40,119 nt of DNA from Trueperaceae bacterium (GCA_035703635.1 DASSXV010000086.1:1-40119), one strand, 5' to 3'. Positions 837-40,119 are shown, numbered from the stretch's first letter. The notes: generated by a model not told the origin, from the sequence alone. Translations and numbers: made by a program.

Positions 837-872
837 GTCAGGCCGCCCAGGGGCAGGGGCGAGGGTCCAAGG

Positions 873-4569: not shown

Positions 4570-4645
4570 TAGGCAAAGCCGCTTTTTCGTCTACATGTGC
4601 CGCAACTTGCTCCCGACAAGGCCTCGAGAAGCGGGGAAGCTGCAG

Positions 4646-5815: not shown

Positions 5816-5822
5816 CCGCTGT

Positions 5823-9254: not shown

Positions 9255-9365
9255 GACGCTAGCTCCCGCGCACCGCGCCAGCGGCGGTGGCCACGGCAAG
9301 ACCGTGACCTCCGCGCTGGCGACGGAAGGCGAGTGGTGGGAGTGCGGCCACTAGCATGCGCAGTC

Positions 9366-17905: not shown

Positions 17906-17909
17906 CGAG

Positions 17910-19082: not shown

Positions 19083-20230
19083 GCCTTGCCGCGCCGCGCA
19101 AGGAGTTCTCGGTAGACGGCCTCCCACTGGTCGACCACGCCAGCAAGGCCGAAGTTCAGTTCGATCTCATGATGAGCCGCCTCACCCATGGCGCGCGTCT
19201 CATCCTCGCCCAACTGCATGAGCCTAAGCATGGCCTCGGCCAAAGCGGTTGGGTCGCGAGGGGGCACTACGAAGCCGGTCTTGCCGTCGGTCACCACCTC
19301 ACGGTTACCGCCTACATCCGTAACCACCGCTGGGAGCCGCGAGGCACCCGCCTCGAGCAGCACCATCGGCAGCCCCTCCCACGCTGACGACATCACGTAC
19401 GCGTCGGCAGCAGCCATGAGGTCCACCACGTCTTTGCGCGCCCCCAACATCCGGAAGTGCGCGCCGTCTAGTCCGGCCGCTTGGACAAGTCGGTCGAGCT
19501 CACCGTGAAGGTTGCCTTCGCCCGCGACCAAGATTGTCGTTGGCGCCGCGTCGTTTCTTGCGGCTAGTTGTCGCACCGCCTCGATTAGGTTCGGGTAGTC
19601 CTTCTGCTCTTCGAGGCGCCCAACGGCCAGCCACAAGAAGGTGCCGGGGGCTATGCCGAGTTCCTGACGCTTCGCTTCCCGCGCGCCGGGTTGCGGCTGG
19701 AAGTTCGCGAGGTCGAGGCCGTTCGGCATGTACTTTATGCGGGCTTTGGGCGTGGCGCCGACGGCGACGAAGTGCTCGACGCAGAGGCGACAGACGTTGG
19801 TGGTCAGGTCGCAGAGTGGGTCGGTAACGCGGTAGGCGAGTTCGCGCCAACGTGCGCCCTCGGAGTAGTTGTGGGCGGTAGAGATCTGCACAGGCATGGG
19901 TGAGAGCAAGCGCGCCAAGCGCGTAAGGAGGTTGGCGTGCACCATGTGGCTGTGGACTACGTCGGGGCGGTTGGCTCGCACGACGTTGGTTAGCTTGAAG
20001 AGTGCCCGCGGATCACCGATACCGCGCTGCATGGCGAGACTATGGAACGGGATCTCAAGCTCCTGCAGCTCTGACTCGAACGCCTCTGCGTCACGCATGC
20101 TGACCAGGGTCACGGTGTGCCCTCTACGTTTCAACTCGGCAGCCAACAGAAAGACCTGAACCTCGGCGCCGCCTTGCATAAGGGACGTGGTAACGAACTG
20201 AACGCTAAGTGGCTGACCAGCGTTAGACAT
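19079..20230 (-). CDS. Glycosyltransferase family 4 (WbnK-like)
   Basis: Motifs GGAEVQ, PDVVHSHMVHAN, VGRLEEQKDY and SSAWEGLPMVLLEA; GGAGAGG RBS. Confidence 0.9.
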   Translation of the reverse strand: MSNAGQPLSVQFVTTSLMQGGAEVQVFLLAAELKRRGHTVTLVSMRDAEAFESELQELEIPFHSLAMQRGIGDPRALFKLTNVVRANRPDVVHSHMVHANLLTRLARLLSPMPVQISTAHNYSEGARWRELAYRVTDPLCDLTTNVCRLCVEHFVAVGATPKARIKYMPNGLDLANFQPQPGAREAKRQELGIAPGTFLWLAVGRLEEQKDYPNLIEAVRQLAARNDAAPTTILVAGEGNLHGELDRLVQAAGLDGAHFRMLGARKDVVDLMAAADAYVMSSAWEGLPMVLLEAGASRLPAVVTDVGGNREVVTDGKTGFVVPPRDPTALAEAMLRLMQLGEDETRAMGEAAHHEIELNFGLAGVVDQWEAVYRELLARRGKA

Positions 20231-20396
20231 CCGAACCTCTCCGGCCGCGCCGCACTGAAGGGCGCTGGCCGCGACGGGAAGTTTAGCACCTGCGCCGCGG
20301 CGGCCTGGGACGCTGCCGCGCAGGACGCAGTGCGGCGAGCTTTAGAATGCAGGTCGGCCGTTGCAGAACGCCGCCACTGGAGTACCGCCGCGCCAG

Positions 20397-21830
20397 ATGA
20401 ACCCTAAGCTGAGAAGAACTGTTCAATACCTGCTGACCGTAGTGCTCGGTCAGGGCCTGTCGTTCCTGCTCCTGCCGGTGGTGACGCGCTTTCTAGATCC
20501 CGTCGAGTACGGCGAGTACGCTCTTGCGCTCACCGTATCCGGGCTCGTTGGCATGTTCGCATCTGGTTGGGTCCGCAACGTTGGCTTGCGCCTCTATTAC
20601 GACGCTAGCGAGCGCGGCACCACGCGCGGTTTCTACCTTGGGACGGCGCTCGTCCAGGCCGTGCTTGCATCCGCGCTCTACGGCGCCGTGCTACTCGGGC
20701 TGCAGGCCTTCGATCTCTTACCTGCGCGCATGGGCGTGTTGCTTGCCGCTGGCCTCGTGCTAATCATTGGCGACCAGTACGGCTACGCCGTCACCCTGCT
20801 CCGCGCGGAGGAGCGCACGACCGCCTTCACCGCCGCGGAGGTAGGCAGCGGCCTTCTGCGCTTTGGCGCCACCCTCGGCGGCCTGTATGCGGGCTTCGCC
20901 ACGGCGCAACTCCTGTTCTTCGCGATGGCCGCAGCGTACTTGGTTGGCACCCTGTTCGCGGTGCCGATGCTATGGCGGCGCCTCAGCGGTCCGAGCCGGA
21001 TCGACTTCAAGGGGCTAGTAGAGACGGTGCGCGCGGGCCCCTCCGCCCTGCCGTTCTCTGTGGCCGCTTGGCTAGATAACCTCGCTAGCCGTCTCATATT
21101 GCAAGGGTTCCTCGGCACCGCCGTGGTCGGCGTCTTCAGCGTCGGCTACTCGATCGGGGAGCGGCTCGTTGGCAGCCTCACGCAGGCCGTCTTCATGATG
21201 GCGTGGCCGAGCATCCTCAACGCCTGGCGCGAGGGTGGAGTCAAGCTCGCGCGCCAAGCCTTGAGTGACGCGCAGCGCATCTACGCGTACCTCACCCTCG
21301 GGCCAGTCCTGTTCCTCGTGATCTTCGGCAGCGAGGTGACGCGCCTCCTGACGGGCCCCGAATACCGCGACGCGAGCGTGGTGGTGCCGCTCGTGGCCAC
21401 GGCCATGTGGTTCCGCGGGCTGTCCTCGTACTTGAACCGCCACCTCGAGCTGAACAAGCGCTACGCGCACCTGTCGCTCGTCGCCATTTGCGGGGCGCTC
21501 GTGAACGTTGGACTGAGCTTCCTGCTCGTCAAGGACTACGGGATGGTCGGGGTCGCGACGGCGACGGTCTTCAGCAACTCGCTAACGTGCGCTTTCTATT
21601 TCCTCACTCGCGATAGGGAGCTAACTCGCGTGCGCTTCGGCTCGTTCGCGGCAGCGGGGGGCCTCGCGGCCTTGGCGTGGGCGCTATCGTCGGCCGTCGG
21701 GGTCTTCGCTACGCCGGGTGGGGTAGTGGTCGGTGACGTCAAGATGGCGGTGTTCATCGCCGTGTACGCTCTCGGCTTCGCAGGAGTGTTCCTAGGGCGC
21801 AGGCTGCTCAGCGCCCGAGGCGCGCTGTGA
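20397..21830 (+). CDS. wzx: Polysaccharide flippase (Wzx/PST family)
   Basis: FLLLPVVTRFLDPVEYGEY motif, about 12-14 TM segments, VGVFSVGYSI and YGMVGVATAT. ATG at 20397 has GGAG upstream. Confidence 0.85.
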   Translation: MNPKLRRTVQYLLTVVLGQGLSFLLLPVVTRFLDPVEYGEYALALTVSGLVGMFASGWVRNVGLRLYYDASERGTTRGFYLGTALVQAVLASALYGAVLLGLQAFDLLPARMGVLLAAGLVLIIGDQYGYAVTLLRAEERTTAFTAAEVGSGLLRFGATLGGLYAGFATAQLLFFAMAAAYLVGTLFAVPMLWRRLSGPSRIDFKGLVETVRAGPSALPFSVAAWLDNLASRLILQGFLGTAVVGVFSVGYSIGERLVGSLTQAVFMMAWPSILNAWREGGVKLARQALSDAQRIYAYLTLGPVLFLVIFGSEVTRLLTGPEYRDASVVVPLVATAMWFRGLSSYLNRHLELNKRYAHLSLVAICGALVNVGLSFLLVKDYGMVGVATATVFSNSLTCAFYFLTRDRELTRVRFGSFAAAGGLAALAWALSSAVGVFATPGGVVVGDVKMAVFIAVYALGFAGVFLGRRLLSARGAL

Positions 21831-23133
21831 CTTCTCCCCAGGTACCGATCGCGAGCACGAGAGCCAACGCTATCCAGTAGAGGAAGCCGTCCGGCGCGGT
21901 CGAGGTCACGCACGCGCCAAGCAGGAACAACGTCAGGCCGACCCCGGCAAGGCCCAACGTGCCGCGCACGCGCCAACTGACGACGAGGCCCGCGAAGTGC
22001 AACGCCAAGAACAGTCCGAGGCCAACGAAGCCGAACTCGTACAAGACCTCGAGGTAGGCGTTGTGCGTCGATGTAAGCGTGCCGAAGCCGCGCTGCACGA
22101 CGTCTACGCTGCTTTCGAAGCCGTTACCGAGGAGCAGCTCCTTGACGTCGCCCTCACGGTAGGCGCCATACACCGCCTGCCAGATCGGCGTGCGGCTGCC
22201 GCCAGACTCGACCCGCTCGCTCGTGAAGCGCTGCACCAGCCCTTCGCCACCGGGCAGTATCGCGCCAGCTCCGATCATCGCGAGGAGCGCGACCACGACC
22301 AGCAACTTGCGCCAGTCCTGCACGACGAGACGCGTGAAAATGGCGACGAGCGCGAGGCCGGCGGCGATGGCCATGCCGCGCGAGGCTAACAGCAACAGTG
22401 AGTACGCCAGCACCCCAGTAAGGAGTAACAACAGCGCACCTTGCCACCGGCGCCCAGCGGTGCTCAATGCCTGAACACTGGCCGCCGCAGCGATCACGAA
22501 CCCGAGCCCGACGTAGAAGGCCACGACGTTCTCGTTAACGTCCACGTCGCCGCGATAGGCGAAGCCGCCGCGAATGGCGCTCTCGATCACCCAGCCGGCC
22601 ACGCCAGTGGAGGCCAGCACGGCGGCGCCAGCCACCAACTTCACGCCGCGCTGCGTCCGGAACTGCAGGTAGGCGATGGCGCCCAAAAGGTACGCAAGCA
22701 CGCGCTGGATGATGGCGAAGTCGATGGCCTGGACGAAGCCAACGAACGACGCTGCCACCACGGCGAGGAACGCGAAGTAGAGCCAGAAGTACGTCGATCG
22801 CACCCTGATGCCCTGGCCGAGTAATGCCGCGACCATGCTGAACACGAACGCCGCATAGAACGGATAGAAGAACCCGTTGATGGTGAGGCCGCTGAAGATC
22901 GTCTCGTAACCGCAGAACGCCAACCAGTAAAGCCCAACGACGATCTCGGACTTGTAACTGCTGTTCATGAACAGCAGGAAGACGCCAAGCACCAAGACCC
23001 CACCAAGCGCGATCTCTGCAGACAGCGCCGCCAGCGCCCCGATCAGCACGGCGCCGATCAGCAACCAGACGCGCACTGCGGCCTGGCCGCGCGCTTCGTC
23101 AGCGCCACTACGCGGCAACCTCGTAACCGACAT
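21808..23133 (-). CDS. O-antigen ligase/Wzy-like polymerase
   Basis: Multi-TM protein with LLASRG, SGGSRTPIW, LLGNG and THNAYLEVLYEFGFVG (Wzy_C motif). ATG at 23133 is preferred over the ORF-track start at 23223, which would overlap the divergent gene. Confidence 0.85.
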   Translation of the reverse strand: MSVTRLPRSGADEARGQAAVRVWLLIGAVLIGALAALSAEIALGGVLVLGVFLLFMNSSYKSEIVVGLYWLAFCGYETIFSGLTINGFFYPFYAAFVFSMVAALLGQGIRVRSTYFWLYFAFLAVVAASFVGFVQAIDFAIIQRVLAYLLGAIAYLQFRTQRGVKLVAGAAVLASTGVAGWVIESAIRGGFAYRGDVDVNENVVAFYVGLGFVIAAAASVQALSTAGRRWQGALLLLLTGVLAYSLLLLASRGMAIAAGLALVAIFTRLVVQDWRKLLVVVALLAMIGAGAILPGGEGLVQRFTSERVESGGSRTPIWQAVYGAYREGDVKELLLGNGFESSVDVVQRGFGTLTSTHNAYLEVLYEFGFVGLGLFLALHFAGLVVSWRVRGTLGLAGVGLTLFLLGACVTSTAPDGFLYWIALALVLAIGTWGEVTARLGR

Positions 23134-23208
23134 CGCCAGTACTTTACTCCGGGCTCCGCCAGCCGCGGTTCGTAAGTCGGCAGGCGCCCTCTCACGTAAT
23201 CTAGGCGG

Positions 23209-24348
23209 GTGCCAGACGCTCACCCCAACCCCAAGGTCCTGTTCATCATGGCAAGCTACGCCGTGGGAGGCACCGAGTTGCAGTTGGCCGCGCTGCTAGC
23301 GAACCGCCCAGCGTGGGCCGCAGGCTACACCCTCGAGACCATCACGTTCCTCCCGCCACGTTCGAGCGCGGTCACCCAACTGTTCGAGGCAGAGGGCGTT
23401 AGCAACACGCTCATCAACCGCGAGGCGCTGTCGTTCCCGCGGTTCTTCTGGCGCCTCCTCACGCAGGTGCGGCGCTCGCGGCCTGACGTACTGCATGCCA
23501 TGCTCGACTCATCCACCGGCGCATGGGGACGCCTGGCTGGTGTGCTGGTCGGGGTTCCTGCCATCGTGCAGTCGGACCGCTCGGTGATGGAGGAGGGCAC
23601 CGGCACGCATAGACGGCTCAGGCCGTTCCTCGACCGCCGCACGCAGCGTTTCCTGCCCAACGCCAACGCCATAGCCGAGAGGCTGATGCGCAGTGGCGTG
23701 CCGCGGGAGCGCATTACGGTCGTGCCTTCAGGTGTCGACCTGGCGCGCTTCGACCCGGCCAGCGTTCAACCTACCGGCCGTTACCGCAGCGCGGCGGGAG
23801 GCGTAGTAGCTGGCTTCGTTGGGCGCTTTCACGCCGTGAAGCGCCTCGACGTACTGCTGGACGCGGTTGCCTCCCTACCTGAGGCCCAGCGGCCAGCGCG
23901 CCTGGTGCTTGCGGGGGACGGCCCAGAGATGGCCGCCGTGCAGGCGCGAGTAGCAGCCGAACCCTGGCTACGCGAGCACGTCGAGCTGCTCGGGGCGTGC
24001 GACGACGTACCAGGCTTCCTGGCGGAGATCGATTACCTCATCCTCTCCTCGGAAGTCGAAGGTGCGCCGAACGCCGTCATAGAAGCCATGGCGATGGGCA
24101 AGCCGGTGGTCGCAACGCGGGTCTCTGACGTACCTGGCATTGTCAAGGGAGCCGGGTTCCTCGCGGAGCCAGGAGACGCGGCCTCGTTGGCTGGCGCCAT
24201 AGCGCAGATGCAGGCCCTCACGCCGGCCGCGCGGGCGGAACTAGGGCGGCACGGACGCCTGAACGTCGAGGCCAACTACGACATGAAGGTAGTCGCCGAA
24301 CGCTTCTGGGAGGCGCACCGTCAACTCCTCACGCGGCGTGCGCGTTAG
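23209..24348 (+). CDS. Glycosyltransferase family 4
   Basis: Motifs GGTELQL, VGRFHAVKR and SSEVEGAPNAVIEAMAMGKPVVAT. Confidence 0.9.
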   Translation: MPDAHPNPKVLFIMASYAVGGTELQLAALLANRPAWAAGYTLETITFLPPRSSAVTQLFEAEGVSNTLINREALSFPRFFWRLLTQVRRSRPDVLHAMLDSSTGAWGRLAGVLVGVPAIVQSDRSVMEEGTGTHRRLRPFLDRRTQRFLPNANAIAERLMRSGVPRERITVVPSGVDLARFDPASVQPTGRYRSAAGGVVAGFVGRFHAVKRLDVLLDAVASLPEAQRPARLVLAGDGPEMAAVQARVAAEPWLREHVELLGACDDVPGFLAEIDYLILSSEVEGAPNAVIEAMAMGKPVVATRVSDVPGIVKGAGFLAEPGDAASLAGAIAQMQALTPAARAELGRHGRLNVEANYDMKVVAERFWEAHRQLLTRRAR

Positions 24349-26273
24349 GAGTTGGCACGGCTCCACTGCTGATACATGAGCACGGGCCATAACCGGTGTT
24401 GCCAATCGGCCTTGCCTGAGAGGTGCTGCTGCCACAGCTCACGAAGTGGCTCGGCGCGGAACTGCCCCTCCAGCTCGAGCGCCTGGACGGACAAAAGTCC
24501 GTCTGCCCAGCCCTTCAGCGGTCCACGTAGCCAGGCGCTGATCGGTACGCCGAAACCTTGCTTGGGACGGTCAACCAGCGCTCGCGGCACGTGCCGGTAG
24601 AGAAGCTGCTTGAGCAACCACTTCTGCTCACCGGCGCGCACGCGCAGGTCGTGGGGAAGCGACCAGGCGAACTCGACCACACGGTGATCCAACAGCGGCA
24701 CGCGCGTCTCTAGCGAGTGAGACATGGCGGCACGGTCGACCTTGACGAGCACGTCATCCGGTAGGTACGAGCGGGTGTCGAACGCCATCATGCGCTCAGT
24801 TGGGTGGGTGCGCGCCAACTCGGCCTTGGCCGCCCACGATGGGGTTGGGGTGGCCCCGCTCTTCAGGACCGCTGCTGGATCGGGCCAGTTGGAGATGCGC
24901 ACGTCGTACAACGCGGCGACGTCGCTCGCGCTGAACGCGGTGCGGAAGCCGCGCACACGGTCGGAGAAGAGGTGGGGGAAGCCCCCGACCTGCAACTCAA
25001 CCATCACGCGTTGCAAGGCGCTGGCGGGTATGGCGCTCATGCCCAAGCTGGCTGCGCGCCGCACGGTCGGGTTGAGGGCCGCCGCGCGCGACCATAGTCG
25101 GCTCGTTCTGGCGTAGCGGCTGTAGCCGGCGAAGAGTTCGTCACCGCCGTCGCCTGAGAGCGCCACCGTCACTTGGGTGCGCGCCAACCCAGCAAGCAAC
25201 CACGTTGGAATGGCCGAGGAGTCGCCGAAAGGTTCGTCGTAGATGACCGGGAGTTTCGGGATCACGGCTTGAGCCTCAGCGGGAGTCACGACGAGCTCCG
25301 CATGCTCGGTTCCAAGGTGCTTGGCTACCTCGCGCGCGGCGGCCGACTCGTCGAACGCGTTCTCACTAAACCCGATGGTGAACGTCTTGACCGGAGCGCC
25401 GCCCAGACTCTGCATGAGCGCCACTACCATGCTTGAGTCGATGCCACCGGAGAGGAAGGCGCCCAGCGGCACGTCAGACATGAGCTGGCCGCGCACGGAC
25501 CGGGAGAGGAGGCGCTCCAACTCGTCGAGGGCCTCTTCGTCACTCCCCGCGAACGTGGAGGTGCGCGCCGCGACTTCCGTTAGCGACCAGTATGGCGTCG
25601 GCTCAGGCAGCGTTGCCCCGCTGGCGGCGTCGACCGTGACGCTCGTGCCAGGCGGCAGCTTGTAGATGCCTTCGTAGATCGACAGTGGGGCCGGGATGTA
25701 ACCGTGCTTCAGGAACGAGGAGAGCGCTCCCTGGTCGATCGTTCCGCTGAACGCGGGGTGTGCTCTAAGGGCCTTCAGCTCTGAGCCGAACAGCAACGTC
25801 CGCCCCTTCTTGCCGTAGTACATGGGCTTTTCACCCAACCGGTCGCGGGCCAACGTGAGCCGCGCGGTCTCGCGGTCCCACACGGCTACCGCGAACATGC
25901 CGACACTGCGCCTGAGGGTCTCCTCCAAGCCGAAGGCCTCGAAGCCCGCCAGCAGCGACTCGGTGTCGGAGTGGCCGCGCCAAGCTGGCGCTGGCCGAAC
26001 GAGAGCGCGGAGCTCTTCGTGGTTGTAGATCTCGCCGTTGAACACGATGACGTAGCGGCCACTAGCAGAGGTCATCGGTTGGTGGCCAGCCGGGCTGAGG
26101 TCCACGATCGCCAGGCGGCGGTGCGCAAGCGCCACGCCACGAGGCGCGTCCAGCCATACTCCGGCGTCATCTGGACCGCGGTGGCTGACAGCAAGTGCCA
26201 TGCGCGCCAAGCTCTCTTTGGCGCCCTCTTCGCTAAACCCGCCGGTCTCGATGAAGCCCGTAATGCCGCACAT
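24345..26273 (-). CDS. asnB: Asparagine synthase (glutamine-hydrolysing)-family amidotransferase, EPS-associated
   Basis: MCGITG Ntn start, HRGPD, HRRLAIVDL, FNGEIYN, FLSGGIDSS, ALSGDGGDELF and ETRVPLLD. Confidence 0.92.
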   Translation of the reverse strand: MCGITGFIETGGFSEEGAKESLARMALAVSHRGPDDAGVWLDAPRGVALAHRRLAIVDLSPAGHQPMTSASGRYVIVFNGEIYNHEELRALVRPAPAWRGHSDTESLLAGFEAFGLEETLRRSVGMFAVAVWDRETARLTLARDRLGEKPMYYGKKGRTLLFGSELKALRAHPAFSGTIDQGALSSFLKHGYIPAPLSIYEGIYKLPPGTSVTVDAASGATLPEPTPYWSLTEVAARTSTFAGSDEEALDELERLLSRSVRGQLMSDVPLGAFLSGGIDSSMVVALMQSLGGAPVKTFTIGFSENAFDESAAAREVAKHLGTEHAELVVTPAEAQAVIPKLPVIYDEPFGDSSAIPTWLLAGLARTQVTVALSGDGGDELFAGYSRYARTSRLWSRAAALNPTVRRAASLGMSAIPASALQRVMVELQVGGFPHLFSDRVRGFRTAFSASDVAALYDVRISNWPDPAAVLKSGATPTPSWAAKAELARTHPTERMMAFDTRSYLPDDVLVKVDRAAMSHSLETRVPLLDHRVVEFAWSLPHDLRVRAGEQKWLLKQLLYRHVPRALVDRPKQGFGVPISAWLRGPLKGWADGLLSVQALELEGQFRAEPLRELWQQHLSGKADWQHRLWPVLMYQQWSRANS

Positions 26274-26551
26274 TCCAGCCCGCACACTACACCGCTGACG
26301 GTTGCCTCGAGGCCGGCGGCGTCATAGGGCCGGTCTAATCAGATGGGGCCTTAGTCATAGAACCCTCTCATCTGTGGGCTGTAACTTAGTCCTTGTCGGG
26401 TTCCATTAGGGCCCGCCACTCGAAAGCGATGATGCGTGCGCCGCAAAGTGGGCGCTTGGTGCGCGCGGAGCTAGTAGCGCAACCGGTCGAGTTCTTTTCG
26501 TCTTTTCAAGAACTGGTTAAGTACCCACCTAGTGGACATCTGGAAATGGTG

Positions 26552-26625
26552 TCCGGAGGCTATGAGCCGTGTATCCCGACTTGGGCATCAAGGGACACGG
26601 GGAGCCAGTGATGCAACCGGCCGGA
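26552..26625 (+). ncRNA. Cyclic di-GMP-II riboswitch aptamer (#3), upstream of the PL9-like lipoprotein
   Basis: Sequence TCCGGAGGCTATGAG CCGTGTATCCC GACTTGGGCATCAA GGGACACGG GGAGCCAGTGATGCAACCGGCCGGA. It has a closing stem TCCGG/CCGGA, an inner stem with a 2-nt bulge, a pseudoknot GCATCA/TGATGC and the conserved TTGGGC and GAG..AGT..TGCAACCG elements. Confidence 0.88.
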
Positions 26626-26667
26626 TGGTGAAGTCAGGTTGCATCCAGACTGTGGGAGCAGGTTCGG

Positions 26668-28656
26668 ATGCGTACAGCAATTTCAGCAAATAGAACCGCC
26701 AGCAGCGTGCTGGCACTGTTTCAACCGAAGTATCTGAAGGGGATTGCCATAATGGCGGCAATCGGACTATTAGCCGCGTGCGGACAGGTCACTAGCGTCC
26801 CTGGCGGCGATGAAACTCAGATCGAACCAACGTGGTCGTGGAGTCCGGTCGGCTACGTCGACGACACCGTTGGGACGGCCGCCGTCGACGACGCCCTCAC
26901 GGTGCACGGCTCCGGAACGGACATCTGGGATGGCCGTGACGAGTTCTTCTACGTCTACACCAGCCTCGTCGGCGACGGCTCACTGTCGGTCAGGGTCAAG
27001 GACCTGCAGGCCGACAACCCGTGGGCGAAAGCTGGCGTCATGCTCCGTGAGAGCCTCGACCCAGACGCGCGCAACGTGCTCCTGCACATTTCCAGGGAGA
27101 ACGGTTCGGTACTGCAGATGCGCCCTGAGACTGGCGGAGCAACCATCAACGATGCGGGGCACGACACGACCATGGCCGTGGGCGGCTGGGTGCGCCTCAC
27201 CCGCACCGGCGACACCGTCCTTGGTGAACTATCTCGCGACGGGGAGAGCTGGACCGAACTCGGCAAGTACGACATCGCTTTGGGCGACAACGCCCTCATC
27301 GGCTTCGCGGTGACTGCGCACGACCGCGGCAAGGTAGCGACGGCCGAGTTCACCAACGTGAGGCGCAACTGGCGCGGCGTTCCAGGCGCTAGGCCGGTCG
27401 TCAAACCAGAGCCGCCAGTGACTCAGCCGACCCCACAGCCCCCGGTCACCGACCCGACCCCAGTGCCGCCCGTCCTCGGGGGCGCCGAGTACGACCTGCC
27501 GCCCGCTACCCTCTACGTGGCCACCAATGGCAACGACAGCAACTCGGGCCGCACCGCTAGCGCGCCGCTTAGAACCATGTCGAAGGCCACCTCCATGGTG
27601 CAGCCAGGTGACGTCGTTTACATTCGCGGAGGCGTCTACCCGATCAACGTCGCGTTCAGAACCCCCGGTACGGCGACCAAGCCCATCGTGTGGGCCTCTT
27701 ACCCGGGCGAGACGGCGATCTTCGACGGCGCAGACCAGAGCCGTGGTAGCAGCCAGCACCGCGTGTGGGTCGACGGCGTGTCCTACAACCACTTCGTGAA
27801 CTTCGAGGTTCGCAACAGCCCTCAGCAGGGCATATTCGTGCGCAACGCCAGCGATAACCTCTTCCACGGCCTCGTCGTCCATGGCAGCAACGGCAGCGGG
27901 ATCCAGAACTACAGCGGCAACCGCAACCGCTACGAGTACCTAGTCACCTACGACAACTTCGACACCGTCAACTCCAACGGCAAGATCGGTGAGGACGCCG
28001 ACGGCATCGGTATCTCAGCAGGTGACTCCAACGTCATCAGTCGCGTGATCAGCTACTACAACTCAGACGACGGCATAGACGCCTGGCGGTCCACGAACAC
28101 CATCATCGAGCACTCCGTGGCGTTCGATAACGGGCGCGGCGCCAACGGCAACGGCAACGGCTTCAAGCTAGGCGGCAACAGCGAAGATAACCGTACGGTC
28201 GCGCGCTTCAATATCGCGTTCTCCAACAAGGCCTCCGGCTTCAGCCAGAACACCGGCCGCAACATCACCGTCTACAACAACACCGCGTATGGCAACTCTG
28301 GCCCCAACTACGACGTTGGCTCGACCGTCACGGTGCGCAACAACCTGTCGATCGGCGGCCGCAACAACGTGTTGAGCAGCGCGATCAGCGGCAACAACTC
28401 GTGGGACTTGGGCATCACCGACGTACGCGTACTGAGCACCGACCGCAATAGCCCCGACTTCCTCTCATTGCGCGCAGACAGCCCCGGAATTGACAGGGGT
28501 AGCGACGTCGGGTTGCCGTACCTCGGCGCGGCCCCGGACCTGGGTGCGCTCGAGTACCAAACGACGATCGCCGACCTGCTCGACTCCGAGCGGCTCCCGA
28601 TCACCGAGATCGTCCGTGCGGCCATCGACTCGGCGACCTTGGCGCTAGGGCACTAG
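26668..28656 (+). CDS. Lipoprotein with a concanavalin/DUF1349-like domain, Pro-rich linker and right-handed beta-helix (PL9 lyase-like)
   Basis: Lipobox LLAAC; GSGTDIW.GRDEF and WAKAGVMLRESL; YVATNGNDSNSG; DADG, NSDDGIDAW and NGNGFKLGG (PL9 Ca-binding aspartates and catalytic Lys); APDLGALE. Confidence 0.8.
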   Translation: MRTAISANRTASSVLALFQPKYLKGIAIMAAIGLLAACGQVTSVPGGDETQIEPTWSWSPVGYVDDTVGTAAVDDALTVHGSGTDIWDGRDEFFYVYTSLVGDGSLSVRVKDLQADNPWAKAGVMLRESLDPDARNVLLHISRENGSVLQMRPETGGATINDAGHDTTMAVGGWVRLTRTGDTVLGELSRDGESWTELGKYDIALGDNALIGFAVTAHDRGKVATAEFTNVRRNWRGVPGARPVVKPEPPVTQPTPQPPVTDPTPVPPVLGGAEYDLPPATLYVATNGNDSNSGRTASAPLRTMSKATSMVQPGDVVYIRGGVYPINVAFRTPGTATKPIVWASYPGETAIFDGADQSRGSSQHRVWVDGVSYNHFVNFEVRNSPQQGIFVRNASDNLFHGLVVHGSNGSGIQNYSGNRNRYEYLVTYDNFDTVNSNGKIGEDADGIGISAGDSNVISRVISYYNSDDGIDAWRSTNTIIEHSVAFDNGRGANGNGNGFKLGGNSEDNRTVARFNIAFSNKASGFSQNTGRNITVYNNTAYGNSGPNYDVGSTVTVRNNLSIGGRNNVLSSAISGNNSWDLGITDVRVLSTDRNSPDFLSLRADSPGIDRGSDVGLPYLGAAPDLGALEYQTTIADLLDSERLPITEIVRAAIDSATLALGH

Positions 28657-28685
28657 CAGCACCGCAAGCTAGACGACCGGACTCC

Positions 28686-28723
28686 GCTTGGCCAGCAGCA
28701 CTCGAGGGTGCTGCTGGCCAAGC
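28686..28723 (+). terminator. Hairpin downstream of the PL9-like gene
   Basis: GCTTGGCCAGCAGCAC-tcgagg-GTGCTGCTGGCCAAGC forms a perfect 16-bp stem followed by CTTAT. Confidence 0.7.
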
Positions 28724-28736
28724 CTTATCCTTGGGA

Positions 28737-29894
28737 ATGGCCAGCGCACGACAGACTACTGACGCCAGTGCGTCACCCACTGGCGCGTATGCGCGCCCCG
28801 AGTTCGCCTTCCTCCTACCTTCCCTTAGGGGTGGCGGAGCCGAGCGCGTCGTGATGGACCTGGCGCGCCAAGCAGCGGACGAGGGGCACGCCGTCGACAT
28901 GGTGGTATTGAATCGCGCTGGCGCCGTGGTGGATGACCTCGGTCCGGGCGTGCGAATAGTGGAGCTGGGCAGGAGCCGCGCTGCCTTCGCGCTACCGGCC
29001 ATGATCGGCTACCTGCGTCACGCGCGCCCGCGAGCCATGCTGACCACGCTAGAACACACGAACGTCTTGGCAGTGATCGCTGCGCGCCTCGTGCCGGGCG
29101 CTGGCGCCGCCCCCCGTACGCGCGTCGTCGTGCGCGAGGCGAACACCGTCAGCGAGGACCTCGTCGGCTTGAAGGGCCGCGCAGTGCGGGCACTCATGCG
29201 CGTTGCTTACCGCTCCGCGGACGCGGTCGTGGCCGTGTCGCTTGGCGTGGCCCGGAGCCTAGAGGCCGAGCTGGGCCTCAACCCAGAGCGCGTGCGCGTG
29301 ATCCTCAACCCGGTGATCACGCCGCGCGTGCTGGCCGGCGCCAAGGAGCCGGTTGGGCACGCCTGGTTCGCGCCAGGCCAGCCGCCTGTCATCTTGGGCG
29401 TAGGGCGCCTCACGGAGCAGAAGGGCTTCGACACACTCGTTAAGGCGTTCGCCACGCTGCGCGCTTCTCGGCCGTGCCGACTCATCATTCTCGGGGAGGG
29501 TGAGTTGAGGCCGGAACTCGAGGCGCTAGCGCGTGATCTGGGGATCGAGGCAGACGTCGACTTGGCCGGCTTCGTCGGCAACCCGTTCCCATACATGGCG
29601 AACTGCGCTGTGTTCGTACTGTCGTCGCGCTGGGAGGGGTTGCCGAACGTGCTCATCCAAGCGATGGCCGTAGGTGCCAAGGTCGTGGCCAGCGATTGCC
29701 CGAGTGGCCCTGCCGAGGTCACCGACGGCGGCACACTAGCGCCGCTCGTGCCGGTGGACGACGTGGCGGCGTTGGCCGCAGCAATGAGCGCCACCCTCGA
29801 GCGGGAGGCCAGCGAGCTTCCCGAAGGGTGGCGCGAACGTTACGAGCTTGAGGCGATCACTGCCGCCTACCTAGACGTCATGCGGGGCGGCTAG
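28737..29894 (+). CDS. Glycosyltransferase family 4 (WabH-like)
   Basis: Motifs GGGAERV, VGRLTEQKGFDTL, GFVGNPFPY and SSRWEGLPNVLIQAMA.G..VVASDCPSGP. Confidence 0.9.
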   Translation: MASARQTTDASASPTGAYARPEFAFLLPSLRGGGAERVVMDLARQAADEGHAVDMVVLNRAGAVVDDLGPGVRIVELGRSRAAFALPAMIGYLRHARPRAMLTTLEHTNVLAVIAARLVPGAGAAPRTRVVVREANTVSEDLVGLKGRAVRALMRVAYRSADAVVAVSLGVARSLEAELGLNPERVRVILNPVITPRVLAGAKEPVGHAWFAPGQPPVILGVGRLTEQKGFDTLVKAFATLRASRPCRLIILGEGELRPELEALARDLGIEADVDLAGFVGNPFPYMANCAVFVLSSRWEGLPNVLIQAMAVGAKVVASDCPSGPAEVTDGGTLAPLVPVDDVAALAAAMSATLEREASELPEGWRERYELEAITAAYLDVMRGG

Positions 29895-34193: not shown

Positions 34194-34434
34194 TATTATC
34201 AATGCCGTCCAATCTAGCTAGGCGCTCGGCCTTTCATAGCGCGGCCGTGCGTCCTACGCCGGACTTACGTCACACCCACACTTGCCTTGTGGGCGCTCCG
34301 CGCACCAGGATGTGAGTGGCCGTGTGAACCCCCGTTGGGCCGCACGCTGCGGAGTATTCAGCTAGTCTACATTGCGGTTCGTTGGCACAAAGATGAGCTT
34401 GGCCAAGCGAACCTACAGGAAGTCAGGTACGAGC

Positions 34435-36444
34435 ATGTGCGGCATCGCCGGAATCTACGACCACGCTGATCCAGCCGGTCTCCGCGACCTCCTCCTAACC
34501 ATGGCGGGTGAACTCGCGCACCGCGGGCCAGACGGCGTCGGCCTTTACCTAGACGGCTCGTTCGGCATGGTGAACACGCGCCTGTCGATCATCGACTTGG
34601 CGGGTGGCGACCAGCCGCTCAGCAACGAGGACGGCCGTTATTGGGTCATGCAGAACGGCGAGATCTATAACTACCCGGAGCTGATGAGCGAGCTGGAGGG
34701 CTTGGGTCACCGGTTCCGCACGCGCTCGGACACGGAAGTCATCGTGCACGCTTTCGAGGAGTGGGGCGAGGGTTGCCTCAATCGGCTCAACGGGGAGTTC
34801 GCGTTGGCGGTCTACGACCGCCACACGAAGCGCCTCTTCCTCGCGCGCGACCGCTTTGGCATCAGGCCGTTGTTCGTGGCGGAGTTCGGGGGCGAGTACG
34901 TTTTCGCTTCCGAGGCGAAGGCGTTGCTGCGCCACCCGCGGTCGCGCCGCGAGCTCGACCCGTTCGCGTTGGTCGAGACCTTCACCATCTGGGCGGTGCA
35001 ACCGGACCGCAGCGCGTTCCCTGGTATCAGGGAGCTGCCTGCGGGGCACTTCGTGTGGGTGGGACCCAAGGGGCCCGAGGCGCCGGTGCGGTGGTGGGAT
35101 ATCGGCTTCGGGCCGCGCGAGGGTGTGCGTCAGGGCTCCGTCGACGAGCTGAAGGAGGAACTCCTCAGCCTGTTGGACGATGCGACGCGTATAAGGCTCC
35201 GCGCAGACGTGCCCGTCGGCGTTTACTTGAGCGGCGGCCTCGATTCGAGCGCCACGACGGCGTTGGCGCGCAGGCATTCGCGCGGGCCGCTCGAGGCGTT
35301 CAGCGTGACGTTCGAGGACCCGCGCTTCGACGAGGCGCCGTTCCAGCAGCGCATGGCCGCAGAGTTGGGCGTCAACCTGCGAACGGTCAGGGTGTCGGAC
35401 GCAGACGTGGCGGCGGTCTTCCCCGAAGTGATCCTGCACGCCGAGAAACCCATGCTGCGCACAGCGCCCGGGCCGCTGCTGCTCCTGTCGCGCTTCGTGC
35501 GCACCTCCGGTTTCAAGGTCGTGCTCACGGGTGAGGGCTCCGACGAGCTTCTCGGCGGCTACAACATCTTTCAAGAGGCCATGGTGAGGCGTTTCTGGGC
35601 GCGGCAACCAGGGTCGCGCTTGCGGCCGCGCCTCCTCGGCAAGCTCTACCCCTACTTGTCGCGCGACTTGCAGCAGGGTGGCGGGTTCATGGCGGAGTTC
35701 TTCAAGGCCGGCATGCTCGAGCTGAACGACCCGCTCTACTCTCACCGCCCGCGCTTCCGCACCACGGCGCGCAACCTGCGCTTCTTGGCCCCCGACACGC
35801 TGGCCACGACGATAACGGTCGGCGACCCGGAGGCGCGCGTCGTTGCCCGTCTTCCGGAGGGGTTCCAACGCATGGGCCCGCTTGGGCAGGCCCAGTACCT
35901 CGAGATAAGTACGTTCCTCACGGGTTTCCTGCTGCATTCGCAGGGCGACCGCATGCTCATGGCCAACTCGGTCGAGGGGCGCTTCCCGTTCCTCGACGTG
36001 AACGTCGCCGAGTTCGCCGCCGCGCTGCCAGAGCGCCTCAGGCTGCGCGACCTTCAGGAGAAGTACCTCCTGCGCAAGTCTCTCGCCAACGTCCTGCCAG
36101 ACGACATAAACAAGCGGCCGAAGCGCCCGTACCGCGCTCCGATCCTACGGGCGTTCTTCGGGCCCGGGGCGCCGGATTACGTGCGCGACCTCCTCGCACC
36201 CGAGCGCGTTGCGGCCAGCGGGCTGTTCAAAACCGCTCACGTCGTCAAGCTCGCCGAGAAGGCACGGCGTTACGCGGACGTCGGCTTCAGCGAGAGTGAC
36301 GAGATGGGACTGGTGGGCGTACTCTCCACCATGCTGCTGCACGAGCAGTTGGTGAGGAACCCGACGCTCGCCGCGCCAGCCGTGGCCACGCGCGTGGTCG
36401 AGGGTGACCATGCGACCGCCGTTGGTCCAGTAAGGGTCTCGTGA
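34435..36444 (+). CDS. asnB: Asparagine synthase-family amidotransferase (second copy, ACP-module associated)
   Basis: MCGIAG start, HRGPDG, RLSIIDL, QNGEIYNY, ARDRFGIRPL, YLSGGLDSS, VLTGEGSDE and DRMLMANSVEGRFPFLD. Confidence 0.9.
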   Translation: MCGIAGIYDHADPAGLRDLLLTMAGELAHRGPDGVGLYLDGSFGMVNTRLSIIDLAGGDQPLSNEDGRYWVMQNGEIYNYPELMSELEGLGHRFRTRSDTEVIVHAFEEWGEGCLNRLNGEFALAVYDRHTKRLFLARDRFGIRPLFVAEFGGEYVFASEAKALLRHPRSRRELDPFALVETFTIWAVQPDRSAFPGIRELPAGHFVWVGPKGPEAPVRWWDIGFGPREGVRQGSVDELKEELLSLLDDATRIRLRADVPVGVYLSGGLDSSATTALARRHSRGPLEAFSVTFEDPRFDEAPFQQRMAAELGVNLRTVRVSDADVAAVFPEVILHAEKPMLRTAPGPLLLLSRFVRTSGFKVVLTGEGSDELLGGYNIFQEAMVRRFWARQPGSRLRPRLLGKLYPYLSRDLQQGGGFMAEFFKAGMLELNDPLYSHRPRFRTTARNLRFLAPDTLATTITVGDPEARVVARLPEGFQRMGPLGQAQYLEISTFLTGFLLHSQGDRMLMANSVEGRFPFLDVNVAEFAAALPERLRLRDLQEKYLLRKSLANVLPDDINKRPKRPYRAPILRAFFGPGAPDYVRDLLAPERVAASGLFKTAHVVKLAEKARRYADVGFSESDEMGLVGVLSTMLLHEQLVRNPTLAAPAVATRVVEGDHATAVGPVRVS

Positions 36445-36512
36445 GCGCCGCCAGCTAGACTTTGAGTGCGAACTACGAGCAGAGTTCAAGTGAGACAGGA
36501 AAGGCACGACAG

Positions 36513-38096
36513 ATGGTTCGAAAGTACGCGAGGCTGCTCCAGGACAGTCTGACGCTCAGCGCTGCGGCGAACGCTGACAAGATCGCCGTGATCACGGCGG
36601 ACGAGCGCGTAGCCTACCGCGAGTTGCATGAGCGCTCGTTGCGGTTCGCCGCGCTACTGCAGGCGAGTGGCGTCAAGCGCGGCGACCGCGTGGCCGTGTT
36701 CCTCGAGAACTCCGTCGACACCGTCGTCGGCGTGTACGGCGCCCTTTACGCCGGCGCCGCGTTCATCGTCGTCAACCCGCAGACCAAGGAAGACAAGCTC
36801 CATTACGTGCTGGCGGACTCTGGCGCGGCCGCGGTGCTTAGCGAGGGGCGCCTGGCGCGCGCCGTCGCTAACCTCATGGCGGCCGCCGACACGGTGCTGC
36901 CGCACCTGAAGGCGCTAGTGCACGCTAGCGGCGCCGTGGGTAGCGAACCGCCAGCGGTTGGCGCGCCGGCGGATTACGCCGAGCGGACGTTGGCCGCCGC
37001 CACCTCCACCGACGTTTCGGCTCCCGGCACCATCCCGCTCGACCTCGCGGCCCTCGTTTACACCTCGGGCAGCACGGGTAACCCCAAGGGCGTCATGCTC
37101 AGCCACCAGAACATGGTGTTCGCGCAGGGCAGCCTCGTCGAGTACTTGCGCCTAGACGAGAGCGACAGGATCCTCAATCTCCTGCCGCTGGCGTTCGATT
37201 ACGGCCTCTATCAGGCGCTCATGACCGTCCACTTGGGCGCGACGTTGGTGCTGGAGCGCACCTTCGCGTTCCCGGCGGCCATCGTCAAGCGCGTGGTCGA
37301 GGAGGGGGTCACGGTCTTCCCCGGCGTGCCAACGGTGTTCGCCACGCTGCTCGCCCTCCACCGCAACACCCCCGTCGCCATGCCGACCGTGCGGCGCTTC
37401 ACGAACACCGCCGCGCACCTGCCAGACGAGTACGTGCCTGGCCTGCTCGCGATGAGCCCAGGCGCCCTCATCTACAAGATGTACGGCCTCACGGAGTGCA
37501 AGCGCGTGTGCTACCTCGAGCCGGAGCTGGTGCTCAGCAAGCCGTCATCAGTCGGCAAGGCCATCCCTGGCACCGAGACGTACCTGCTTGGCGAGGACGG
37601 GGAGCCGACGCCGGCTGGCGAGACGGGCACGCTCTACGTCCGCGGCCCGCACGTCATGCTGGGCTACTGGAACCTCCCTGCCGAGACGCAGCACATGCTC
37701 AAACCAGGCAAGTATCCGGGTGAGCGCGTGCTATGCACCCACGACTTCTTCCGCGTCGACGAAGACGGCTGCCTCTACTTCATGGGCCGCTCGGACGACA
37801 TCATCAAGAGCCGCGGCGAGAAGGTCAGCCCCGTCGAGGTCGAGAACGCACTGGCGGCGGTGCCAGGCGTGCGCGAGGTGGCCGTCATCGGCGTGCCTGA
37901 CGAGCTCATGGGTCAAGCCGTGCGCGCCTTCGTCGTCCTCGACACTGGCGTCGCCTTCACCGAGCAGGCTTTCAAGCGCGAGGCCATGGCGCGCCTCGAG
38001 GGCTTCATGGTCCCGCGCGACGTGCGCTTCGTGGACGACCTCCCCAGGACCGCCACCGGTAAGGTACGCAAGAAGAGCCTCGTCGAGCGGGAGTGA
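36513..38096 (+). CDS. Class I adenylate-forming (acyl-ACP/CoA ligase-like) enzyme
   Basis: YTSGSTGNPKG (A3), MYGLTE (A5), GRSDDIIKSRGEKVSPVEVE (A8) and LPRTATGKVRK (A10). ATG at 36513 follows AGGAAAGG. Confidence 0.92.
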   Translation: MVRKYARLLQDSLTLSAAANADKIAVITADERVAYRELHERSLRFAALLQASGVKRGDRVAVFLENSVDTVVGVYGALYAGAAFIVVNPQTKEDKLHYVLADSGAAAVLSEGRLARAVANLMAAADTVLPHLKALVHASGAVGSEPPAVGAPADYAERTLAAATSTDVSAPGTIPLDLAALVYTSGSTGNPKGVMLSHQNMVFAQGSLVEYLRLDESDRILNLLPLAFDYGLYQALMTVHLGATLVLERTFAFPAAIVKRVVEEGVTVFPGVPTVFATLLALHRNTPVAMPTVRRFTNTAAHLPDEYVPGLLAMSPGALIYKMYGLTECKRVCYLEPELVLSKPSSVGKAIPGTETYLLGEDGEPTPAGETGTLYVRGPHVMLGYWNLPAETQHMLKPGKYPGERVLCTHDFFRVDEDGCLYFMGRSDDIIKSRGEKVSPVEVENALAAVPGVREVAVIGVPDELMGQAVRAFVVLDTGVAFTEQAFKREAMARLEGFMVPRDVRFVDDLPRTATGKVRKKSLVERE

Positions 38097-38156
38097 ACCC
38101 CGCGGGGCGCGAACTAGCCGCAGCCCACGGCACCGCACATAAGGAGCAACAGAGAG

Positions 38157-38441
38157 ATGACACTTAACACCATAGACACCGCCACCATCGACCAAGACGT
38201 GCGCCAGTTCCTAGCTGACAACTTCATCCTCGATGACGGCGGGACTGGGCTCGGCGCGGACGACTCCCTCACGCAGGCAGGGGTGCTCGACTCAATGGGC
38301 GTCCTCGAGCTGATCATGTTCGTCCAGGAGCGCTTCGGCGTGAGCATCCCTGACGAGGACACGCTTCCGGAGAACCTCGACAGCGTCTCGCGCATCGTCA
38401 ACTACATCAGCAAGCGTCTGGCGGCAGAAGCGCGTGGCTGA
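38157..38441 (+). CDS. Acyl carrier protein
   Basis: Small acidic protein with a GVLDSMG phosphopantetheine site, FGVSIPDED..PENLDS, and a TAAGGAG RBS. Confidence 0.92.
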   Translation: MTLNTIDTATIDQDVRQFLADNFILDDGGTGLGADDSLTQAGVLDSMGVLELIMFVQERFGVSIPDEDTLPENLDSVSRIVNYISKRLAAEARG

Positions 38442-39432
38442 GGGGTTCGGCCCTCACGTCCTTCGGCTGCCAGACCCGGAGGCGAGCATCGAGGCCATCG
38501 CCGCGGGCATGCGCCGCGAGGTGCGCGCCTTCAGGCGCAAGGGTGGAGTGCTCGGCTTGTCCGGCGGCATCGACTCGAGCGTGGTGGCGGCTCTCGCCGC
38601 CCGCGCGTTCGGGCCGAAGAACGTGCTCGGGGTCCTCATGCCGGAGGCCGACTCGTCCGCCGACACCCTCATGCTCAGCCGCCTAGCCGCAGAGGGCGCC
38701 GGCATAGGCACCGTGCTGGAGGAGATAACGCCCATACTGGACGCCGTCGGTTGTTACCGCCGCCGCGATGAGGCGTTCAAGCGCGTGATCCCGGACTACG
38801 GCCCCGGCTGGAAGGCGAAGATCGTGCTGCCGAGCGTCATCGACTCTGACGCCTTCCGCATCTTCTCCGTCGTTGCGCAGGCGCCAGACGGCACCACCTT
38901 CAAGGAGCGCTTGCCGCTCGAGGAGTACCTGCAGGTCGTCGCCGCCACTAACTTCAAGCAGCGCACCCGCAAGATGCTCGAGTACTATCACGCGGACCGC
39001 CTAAACTACGCGGTGCTCGGCACCCCGAACCGCCTCGAGTACGACCAGGGGTTCTTCGTCAAGAACGGCGACGGCGCTGCAGACATCAAGCCCATCGCGC
39101 ACCTCTACAAGTCGCAGGTCTACCAACTAGCCGAGGCGCTGGGGGTGCCAGCCGAGATCCGGTCGCGGCCACCGACCACGGACACGTACTCCATGCCGCA
39201 AAGCCAGGAGGAGTTCTACTTCTCGCTGCCGTACGACAAGATGGACCTGTGCCTCTACGCCGTCGACAACGGGATCTCTGCTGCCGTGGTGGCCGACAGT
39301 CTGGGCCTGACGCAGGAGCAGATCGAGCGCGTGTTCCAAGACATCGCTGGTAAACGCCGCGTTAGCCAGTACTTGCACGCCGCACCGCGCCTCGTCGTTG
39401 GCGACGGCCAGGGCCCGAGCGGCGCGGCCTGA
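38434..39432 (+). CDS. nadE: NH3-dependent NAD(+) synthetase-like protein (probably a specialised paralogue)
   Basis: GLSGGIDSS PP-loop, NFKQRTRK, GTPNRLE..QGFFVKNGDG..DIKPIAHLYKSQVY and PPTTD. No glutaminase domain. GTG start overlaps the ACP gene. Confidence 0.8.
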   Translation: MAEGFGPHVLRLPDPEASIEAIAAGMRREVRAFRRKGGVLGLSGGIDSSVVAALAARAFGPKNVLGVLMPEADSSADTLMLSRLAAEGAGIGTVLEEITPILDAVGCYRRRDEAFKRVIPDYGPGWKAKIVLPSVIDSDAFRIFSVVAQAPDGTTFKERLPLEEYLQVVAATNFKQRTRKMLEYYHADRLNYAVLGTPNRLEYDQGFFVKNGDGAADIKPIAHLYKSQVYQLAEALGVPAEIRSRPPTTDTYSMPQSQEEFYFSLPYDKMDLCLYAVDNGISAAVVADSLGLTQEQIERVFQDIAGKRRVSQYLHAAPRLVVGDGQGPSGAA

Positions 39433-39439
39433 GGTCCGA

Positions 39440-40119
39440 ATGAAGATCAGAGCCTTCGAACCGGAAGACGTCGCCGCCGTAGCCTCGCTGTGGCAGTACT
39501 GGTTCAAGGACAAGACCCGCACGCCTGACCCTCGGCTCGTGGCGCTCGCCACGCGCATCTACGTCGATGACCCGAACACGGACGGAGAGATCCGCCCACT
39601 AGTCGCGGTCGACGACGCTGGCGCCATGCTCGGCTTCCTCGGTACGAGCGTCACGCCCATCGTGGTCGACGGGCGTGAGGGCAAGCTGGCCGGCGTGTTC
39701 CCGTCCGTCGTCAGCCCGGACGCGCCGACGACCGTGGCGGCCTTCCTCCTCCGCAAGTTCCTCGCCGGACCGCAAGATTTCACCTTCAGCGACGGCGGGC
39801 ACGTGAAGTTCGAACGCATCTGGGAGCTGCTCGGTGGGCGCATCATGCAGTTGCAGTCGCTGCGCTGGGTGAAGCTGCTGCGCCCTGGAGCCGTCGGCCT
39901 CGGGGCGGTAGCGGGGCGCCGCGCCTCCGTGGCGGCGTTGGCGCCCGTCCTGCGGCCCCTCGTCGGTGGCGGCGACCAACTAGCCCGCCGCGCCATGCGC
40001 ACGCGCCTGAGGGCGCCTGCGGGCTCAGGCGACTACGTTACGGAGCCGCTCACCCCGCAGCTGATGGCAAGCGCGGCGCCGGAGCTGCTCGGTAAGGCGC
40101 GGCTGCGCCCCCGTTACCT
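39440..40119 (+). CDS. GNAT-fold acyltransferase-like protein, truncated by the window edge
   Basis: Not in the ORF track. Open frame from ATG 39440 to the end: MKIRAFEPEDVAAVASLW...LVAVDDAGAMLGFLG...LLRKFLAGPQDFTFSDG...RIWELLGG. The start resembles a GNAT N-terminus (IR.....D...V..L). Confidence 0.65.
   Translation, partial: MKIRAFEPEDVAAVASLWQYWFKDKTRTPDPRLVALATRIYVDDPNTDGEIRPLVAVDDAGAMLGFLGTSVTPIVVDGREGKLAGVFPSVVSPDAPTTVAAFLLRKFLAGPQDFTFSDGGHVKFERIWELLGGRIMQLQSLRWVKLLRPGAVGLGAVAGRRASVAALAPVLRPLVGGGDQLARRAMRTRLRAPAGSGDYVTEPLTPQLMASAAPELLGKARLRPRY

Follow-up and report, generated by a model that had tools for sequence, protein, structure and literature searches.

A Carrier-protein Cassette with a Long NadE Paralog in Trueperaceae: a Candidate Source of an Amidated Acyl Group for Surface Glycans

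The present study examined a five-gene cassette on the + strand (positions 34435-40119) of a 40,119-nucleotide stretch of DNA from a Trueperaceae bacterium; this whole stretch is hereafter called the window. The cassette encodes an AsnB-type glutamine amidotransferase, a stand-alone adenylation enzyme (ligase), an acyl carrier protein (ACP), a long paralog of NadE, and a tandem-GNAT protein. An uncharacterised cassette of this kind is already known, and the locus is a variant of it that carries an unclassified tandem GNAT. Comparisons of sequences and gene content indicate that the NadE paralog is very probably not the NAD synthetase of the cell. We also propose, as an evenly balanced possibility, that the cassette supplies a surface-glycan amine with an amidated acyl group of four carbons, namely, a beta-linked and amidated aspartyl group.

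Results

The core of the cassette recurs across distant phyla. A NadE-like scan of genome contigs returned at least 493 relatives, and the best 80 loci, which are the closest relatives rather than a random sample, were analysed. These loci span Deinococcota, Actinomycetota, Planctomycetota, Desulfobacterota, Verrucomicrobiota, Spirochaetota, and others. The ligase was detected by tblastn in 67 of them, AsnB in 62 (including a few stand-alone AsnBs), and the ACP in 62. Fifty of the best 80 loci are each at least 14 kb in length (long loci). AsnB, the ligase, the ACP, and the NadE-like protein occurred together in 42 of these 50, and their grouping is, therefore, not due to chance. Polysaccharide gene families, which were labelled by Pfam on representatives, were present in 54 of the 80 loci and 39 of the 50 long loci. 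The partners found among the long loci were a secreted SGNH-like protein (19), a hexapeptide acyltransferase (18, mostly alongside SGNH), the tandem GNAT of the window family (9), another GNAT (2), and an alpha/beta hydrolase (2). No condensation, thioesterase, or export gene was recurrent across the cassette loci.

A preliminary description of the window had pointed to a similar nadE, ligase, ACP (SMb20651), and asnB operon in Sinorhizobium meliloti, and this proved correct. The asnB, ACP, ligase, and nadE of S. meliloti RCAM1115 are adjacent and orthologous to those of the window, with identities of 49, 39, 48, and 60%, respectively. The RCAM1115 copy was compared because the operon was not present at 1.56-1.60 Mb of NC_003078; SMb numbers follow the cited description. 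The order on pSymB is asnB-ACP (SMb20651)-ligase (SMb20650)-nadE, whereas that in the window is asnB-ligase-ACP-nadE. Moreover, unlike the S. meliloti operon, the window cassette is flanked by a Wzx/Wzy cluster on one side and amino-sugar genes on the other, and no other nadE was found in its genome. According to PMC7232532, SMb20650 and SMb20651 are co-transcribed; the ligase acylates the ACP in vivo and does not substitute for FadD. The function of SMb20651 is described as open in PMC5686131, and both articles credit the pSymB operon to Ramos-Vega et al. (2009). A literature search did not reveal a characterisation of an asnB-ligase-ACP-nadE cassette. A preprint on MmcA mentions a Methanosarcina ACP-ligase operon.

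The window is the entire contig C49 of genome G000 (2.9 Mb, 97.65% complete). A frame check and family scans located all five frames, co-oriented and tightly packed on the + strand, as had been claimed from the sequence of the window. The claim that AsnB and NadE flank the ligase and ACP holds at this locus; however, gene order differs among genomes. In the genus relatives L137 (G012), L143 (G005), L011, and L013, asnB does not adjoin ligase-ACP-nadE-GNAT. The NadE-like frame overlaps the ACP frame by 8 bp, and the GNAT-like frame starts 7 bp past the nadE stop. The fifth gene is cut by the window edge, and the last 141 bases of C49 are exactly the first 141 bases of contig C20, across which the GNAT frame runs. 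A promoter scan found one weak site 5' of asnB (0.4 expected). RNA-library contigs from two studies span the operon and its neighbours evenly; such contigs cannot show transcription, and DNA carry-over is possible.

The NadE-like protein (38434..39432, + strand) lacks a glutaminase domain and belongs to the PRK00876 subfamily, scoring 488.5 bits against NF002048/PRK00876 (cut-off 313). It keeps the PP-loop and most catalytic residues and matches the fold of 1XNG, 3FIU, and 2E18 (Z 27-28). It also retains K175, R177, R179, F207-F208, K210, D213, and K307, which belong to the dinucleotide-binding region. In fold, PP-loop, and catalytic residues it, thus, resembles NadE (EC 6.3.1.5). In contrast to that enzyme, it has approximately 55 extra residues in a conserved insertion (residues ~105-160), forms a clade of its own, and travels with an ACP and a ligase rather than with pncB. 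In a quick tree with housekeeping rows from Deinococcota only, the long NadEs formed a separate long-branched clade (support 99), which places the window protein outside the housekeeping NadEs of its own order. Fusions were detected among 36 long matches: 10 complete ligase-NadE, one NadE-ligase, and one complete AsnB-NadE; most of the remaining matches are partial and may be frameshift artefacts. Six of the 80 loci (L024, L039, L045, L058, L064, and L084) have two long NadE paralogs. The second paralog is on a divergent branch (37-42% identity to the window protein), and some of these loci have two ACPs. Two Azospirillum/Herbaspirillum papers deal with a 'NadE1' that depends on glutamine and lies outside the long-NadE subfamily. 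Our literature search yielded no characterisation of a NadE homolog in pyrazofurin synthesis.

We then weighed whether this protein has a housekeeping role, which the preliminary description had denied. No separate housekeeping nadE was found in the 97.65% complete genome G000, in which the window protein was the only full NadE match; other rows were partial PP-loop matches. The long type is also the sole NadE in 12 further genomes of the family, and the NadE fold (Z 28) and most catalytic residues are retained. On its face, the sole-NadE result speaks for NAD synthesis, but it has to be weighed alongside the missing upstream pathway. Searches of G000 did not identify nadA, nadC, pncB, nadV, pncC, nadD, nadR, or pnuC, while the absence of a gene from a metagenome-assembled genome falls short of proof. 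The single strong nucleotidyltransferase match is CoaD, judging from its sequence motifs. A missing nadD alone proves little because it was also not recognised in five relatives that have pncB and canonical nadE. The Trueperaceae lineage may hold an unrecognised adenylyltransferase.

The distribution of the two NadE types points in the other direction. Canonical nadE was present in nine of 37 family genomes, and pncB in exactly those nine. Sixteen of the 37 had the long NadE (three together with canonical nadE and pncB), and 15 had neither type, 11 of which were at least 90% complete; these genomes are kin and their counts are not independent. In the 13 sole carriers of the long NadE, one of them a closed genome, pncB, nadV, and nadC were not found. 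Distant carriers (50 of 69 non-Trueperaceae-biased loci, with longer ones chosen) held a second NadE without the insertion in 46 of 50 genomes. By our own classification, 31 of these second NadEs matched at E < 1e-45 and 15 were in long frames typical of glutamine-dependent forms. The missing upstream genes, the tracking of nadE with pncB (9/9), the separate nadE in 46 of 50 distant carriers, and the ligase fusions all suggest that the NadE paralog is, with high probability, not the NAD synthetase of the cell. The earlier claim is, thus, supported by the missing pathway genes, the separate clade, and the fusions, while the sole NadE in G000 does not agree with it.

Genome G000 has no recognisable NAD synthesis or salvage, and genus members, including G003 (closed) and G013, share this pattern; among 18 genus genomes, nadV and nadC were found in none and pncB in two. 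Intact uptake or an unrecognised route is possible for the NAD supply of such cells. In G002, G017, G029, G031, and G035, which have pncB and canonical nadE, no nadD match exceeded the cut-off, and an NMN-synthetase route or an unrecognised adenylyltransferase is possible.

The best single-domain PDB match of the ligase (36462..38096, + strand; AMP-binding; alternative start 36513) was 3WVN (E 3e-82), which is VinN. According to PMC11253843, VinN residues D230, F231, S299, K330, and R331 bind 3-methylaspartate and L-aspartate as beta-amino acids. They correspond to D246, Y247, T316, K347, and R348 of the window ligase in a gap-free part of the alignment, with a 16-residue offset between the 3WVN PDB chain and the numbering in that text deduced from the alignment. 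K534 also belongs to the pocket. The window ligase, thus, has the amine-binding Asp, the bulky next residue, the opposite Ser/Thr, and the Lys-Arg in a shortened loop of VinN-type enzymes, and the S. meliloti ligase has the same motifs. Since VinN is the best relative and the D, K, and R of the pocket are kept, L-aspartate activated at the beta-carboxyl is the likely cargo. The earlier suggestion of a dicarboxylate or amino acid can, thus, be narrowed to a dicarboxylic amino acid. Among 62 near-full-length cassette ligases (out of 68 called), the full D..KR code was found in 25 and R348 in all 62. The cargo differs across the family because 37 of the 62 lack the full code. We read the family as binding a distal carboxylate, and we place the window and S. 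meliloti enzymes in a putative branch specific for aspartate.

The vicenistatin pathway also pairs a beta-amino acid adenylation enzyme with a stand-alone carrier, and its VinN has matching pocket residues. In contrast to that pathway, the window has no nearby polyketide synthase, decarboxylase, or mutase genes, and the partners of its ligase are two amide-forming enzymes and a GNAT. The exosortase-A-associated families TIGR03098 (ligase) and TIGR03108 (amidotransferase) were the best or second-best NCBIfam matches of the window ligase and AsnB, and a polysaccharide context is common to both systems. However, the window proteins were below the cut-offs (410 of 592 bits and 433 of 817 bits, respectively), and the window cassette has no pyridoxal phosphate-dependent decarboxylase. 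An exosortase adjoins eight of the 62 scored ligase loci.

The carrier protein (38157..38441, + strand; PP-binding) has a DS motif with Ser46 for phosphopantetheine, and D45, S46, G48, and N73 are invariant in 47 relatives. In a search with the family profile, peptidyl and aminoacyl carriers (2MY5, PigG, PltL, and the D-alanyl carrier) ranked above fatty-acid ACPs. A phosphopantetheinyl transferase gene is present on contig C74 of G000. A predicted complex of the NadE-like dimer with the ACP scored 0.29, against a mark of 0.32, and does not enter into our reading either way.

AsnB (34435..36444, + strand; Pfam GATase_7 and Asn_synthase) scored 482 bits against TIGR01536 (cut-off 267), and its catalytic features are intact (ATG-Cys start, Ntn Cys2, N74-G75, and the PP-loop SGGLDS). 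It is 42-83% identical to other cassette AsnBs and only 31-33% identical to stand-alone exopolysaccharide AsnBs, such as that at 24345-26285 of the window. DdaH is an amidotransferase acting on a starter or carrier-bound acid. OxyD, which PMC6164072 describes as an AsnB-type enzyme thought to produce an amide starter unit, resembles the window AsnB and is a precedent for such a reaction. Unlike the window cassette, OxyD/DdaH-type systems function in the assembly of polyketides or peptides and lack a NadE paralog. In Actinomycetota (L015, L021, L042, L047, L056, L060, L062, L063, L069, and L081), asnB is immediately preceded by a short second frame that resembles an ACP but shows no obvious DS motif, often together with an AcpS gene.

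The fifth gene (39440..40119, + strand) encodes the N-terminal 226 residues of a protein of approximately 369 residues, the frame of which ends at base 571 of C20. Pfam did not match this fragment, NCBIfam did not match a full-length relative, and Acetyltransf_9 was matched weakly by 32 of 76 family members. The C49 and C20 pieces are 68 and 75% identical to the full-length relative at L005, for which the protein collection contains 98 homologs, all without an informative name. The model of the L005 relative, used as a stand-in for the window protein, has two GNAT domains in one chain (pLDDT 95.8). It matched NMT 8FBT (Z 18.3, 301 residues, root mean square deviation 5.2) and Eis-like 2HV2 (Z 17.6, 288 residues, root mean square deviation 3.9), with identities of 7-17% to solved members. 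On this model, the protein is classed as a so far unclassified tandem GNAT with an NMT/Eis-like appearance. Of the two possible donors, acyl-CoA and acyl-ACP, genome context favours the carrier-bound one.

Among 16 family carriers, 11 have the GNAT gene immediately 3' of nadE, as do 20 of 22 metagenome loci; contig edges cut the remaining two metagenome loci. A PglD/NeuD-type acyltransferase occupies this position in G030 and G031, and an FAD oxidoreductase in G011. The GNAT is missing from five of 16 family carriers and does not stand beside the S. meliloti operon; the preliminary description had counted it with the module, but it does not belong to the conserved core. The core is independent of the GNAT because PglD, an FAD oxidoreductase, or nothing takes its place in relatives. 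The tandem-GNAT family, thus, goes with carrier systems in sugar loci; it is tied to the cassette in the Trueperaceae lineage and replaceable elsewhere. A strict link between the presence of the GNAT and the absence of PglD did not emerge: G000, G004, G006, and G014 have both. At L142 (G018:C23), pglC precedes a run of pglD, a luciferase-like monooxygenase, a DltA-like A-domain, an ACP, and a tandem GNAT (pglD to GNAT, 3-4857); this GNAT relative (30% identity), thus, stands behind a different A-domain and ACP.

A Wzx/Wzy-type polysaccharide cluster, identified by Pfam and NCBIfam matches, occupies 15445..29894 of the window. It contains a Wzc-like kinase, a deacetylase, four GT4 glycosyltransferases, a flippase, a polymerase-like protein, and a second, stand-alone AsnB; in genus relatives, the cassette is bordered by these gene families as well. 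This cluster is a candidate for the acceptor pathway of the cassette. Past the GNAT, the opposite strand of C20 encodes an epimerase, an aldo-keto reductase, a PglF-like dehydratase, a PglC-like sugar transferase, and a DegT aminotransferase. These amino-sugar genes and the glycan families in the long loci agree with the polysaccharide context proposed previously.

Discussion

We infer the reactions of the cassette from its genes, their orthology, pocket residues, co-occurrence, fusions, and folds, which were observed. The ligase probably adenylates the beta-carboxyl of L-aspartate, in the manner of VinN, and loads it onto the phosphopantetheine of the ACP, such that the alpha-amine and alpha-carboxyl would stay free. 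It is slightly more probable than its opposite that the tethered alpha-carboxyl is then amidated, giving a beta-linked isoasparaginyl group. We tentatively assign this amidation to the NadE paralog because carboxyl adenylation is NadE chemistry and NadE is found fused to the ligase. Ammonia would possibly come from the glutaminase of AsnB, and the roles of NadE and AsnB may be swapped. AsnB would then form a second amide, either on the acyl unit or on an acceptor uronate. The balance tips marginally towards a transfer of the group by the tandem GNAT, with the ACP thioester as the donor and an amine as the acceptor; the likeliest amine is that of the 4-amino-6-deoxy sugar that the PglF-like and DegT proteins of C20 would produce. 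According to PMC10609480, aspart-4-yl groups are recorded on 4-amino-4,6-dideoxy sugars in Providencia and Treponema glycans, and the known aspartyl substituents are N-acetylated.

Two ATP-dependent nitrogen-adding enzymes face one free carboxyl, and we, therefore, speculate on a step beyond the amide. The second amide-forming enzyme may use a uronate as its substrate, provide ammonia, couple the sugar amine, or convert the amide to an amidine or nitrile. In a bolder form, which we consider doubtful, the PRK00876 NadE-fold would have been repurposed for a carrier-tethered acid and would take the amide to an amidine or nitrile or couple the sugar amine directly. On this view, organisms of many phyla would share one general route to an undescribed nitrogen-rich glycan substituent, in which both the cargo (aspartate or amine-free dicarboxylates) and the transferase (tandem GNAT, hexapeptide, or secreted SGNH) could be exchanged.

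Several observations weigh against the transfer of an amidated aspartyl group to a glycan. Fifteen of the 50 long loci have no tallied candidate transferase, and 11 have no tallied polysaccharide families. The closed genome G003 has the core, no match to the tandem GNAT, and no co-oriented gene 3' of the core. The S. meliloti operon has neither a GNAT or other candidate transferase nor glycan genes beside it. The full pocket code is missing from 37 of the 62 ligases, and in 36 of these the amine-binding Asp is absent. A PglD-like gene that G000 carries on contig C23 could acetylate the amino sugar instead. Furthermore, one free carboxyl for two amide-forming enzymes leaves one of them without a clear substrate.

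The constant core with a varying or missing transferase (15 of 50 long loci, G003, and S. meliloti) also favours an explanation that we regard as unlikely, in which the core alone does the coupling. An amide-forming enzyme would adenylate the carboxyl of the tethered acid or of a nucleoside diphosphate-uronate, the sugar amine or tethered amino acid would be the nucleophile, and the GNAT would only add an N-acetyl-like cap. The dinucleotide-binding-region residues and conserved insertion of the NadE paralog are consistent with this, as are the acyl-CoA enzymes among the fold relatives of the GNAT and known N-acetylated substituents such as N-acetyl-aspart-4-yl sugars (PMC10609480). However, an ACP thioester is already activated and its release needs a transferase or hydrolase, the G018 GNAT behind an unrelated A-domain and ACP fits carrier-dependent transfer, and most ligases of the family lack the amine-binding Asp.

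It is quite unlikely that the product of the cassette is a small diffusible molecule or a modification on a lipid or protein, with the position of the cassette in glycan loci reflecting shared regulation or insertion sites. The 11 long loci without polysaccharide families and the stand-alone S. meliloti operon are compatible with this, the top fold match of the GNAT is the protein N-acyltransferase NMT, and VinN-type enzymes and peptidyl carriers stem from natural-product pathways. In contrast, 39 of the 50 long loci, from many phyla, lie in polysaccharide clusters, the partners commonly include hexapeptide sugar acyltransferases and the secreted SGNH-like family (19 of 50), and condensation, thioesterase, and export genes do not recur.

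Finally, it is very unlikely that the long NadE works or doubles as an NAD synthetase that amidates imported nicotinic acid adenine dinucleotide (NaAD) with AsnB-derived ammonia: although it is the sole NadE in G000, keeps the fold and catalytic residues, and is named NAD(+) synthase by NCBIfam, searches of G000 turned up no gene for making nicotinic acid mononucleotide or NaAD, and pncB, nadV, and nadC were not found in the 12 other sole carriers. In addition, neither NadE type is present in 11 family genomes of at least 90% completeness, a canonical nadE is retained by 46 of the 50 distant carriers, and the long type occurs in ligase fusions and as two paralogs in six of 80 loci.

The S. meliloti operon has been without a known product since 2009, and the VinN pocket suggests L-aspartate as its cargo. 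Since NCBIfam and deposited records name this subfamily NAD(+) synthase, metabolic models may credit genomes such as G000 with an NAD synthesis that they seem to lack. If the cassette does serve surface glycans, it would account for how beta-aspartyl-type groups reach bacterial polysaccharides and add an unclassified tandem-GNAT family.

In other phyla, the cassette is repeatedly accompanied by a secreted SGNH-like family (L047:6537-7367 and 22 further loci). This family has GHQS ... DGGH motifs and almost no Pfam or NCBIfam match, and is a candidate extracytoplasmic transferase or esterase. A secreted SGNH-type partner was not detected in G000 by tblastn.

Elsewhere in the window, positions 4595-13180 encode two GH114 proteins, a PelF-type GT4 over the cut-off, an Agd3-like deacetylase, and two unassigned frames, and this region appears to be a Pel-like or galactosaminogalactan-like cluster. 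Beta-helix (Pel9A-like) and Ig-domain proteins that look secreted or like lipoproteins are encoded at 13522-15114, 26668-28656, 29909-31831, and 32109-34202, including between the glycan cluster and the cassette; they are conserved in genus relatives. Another locus of G000 (L086; C23:56000-75999) contains NeuB, a PglD-like acetyltransferase, a nucleotidyltransferase, a third AsnB, DegT, and a pyruvyl transferase; this second glycan cluster is probably for a nonulosonic acid polysaccharide.

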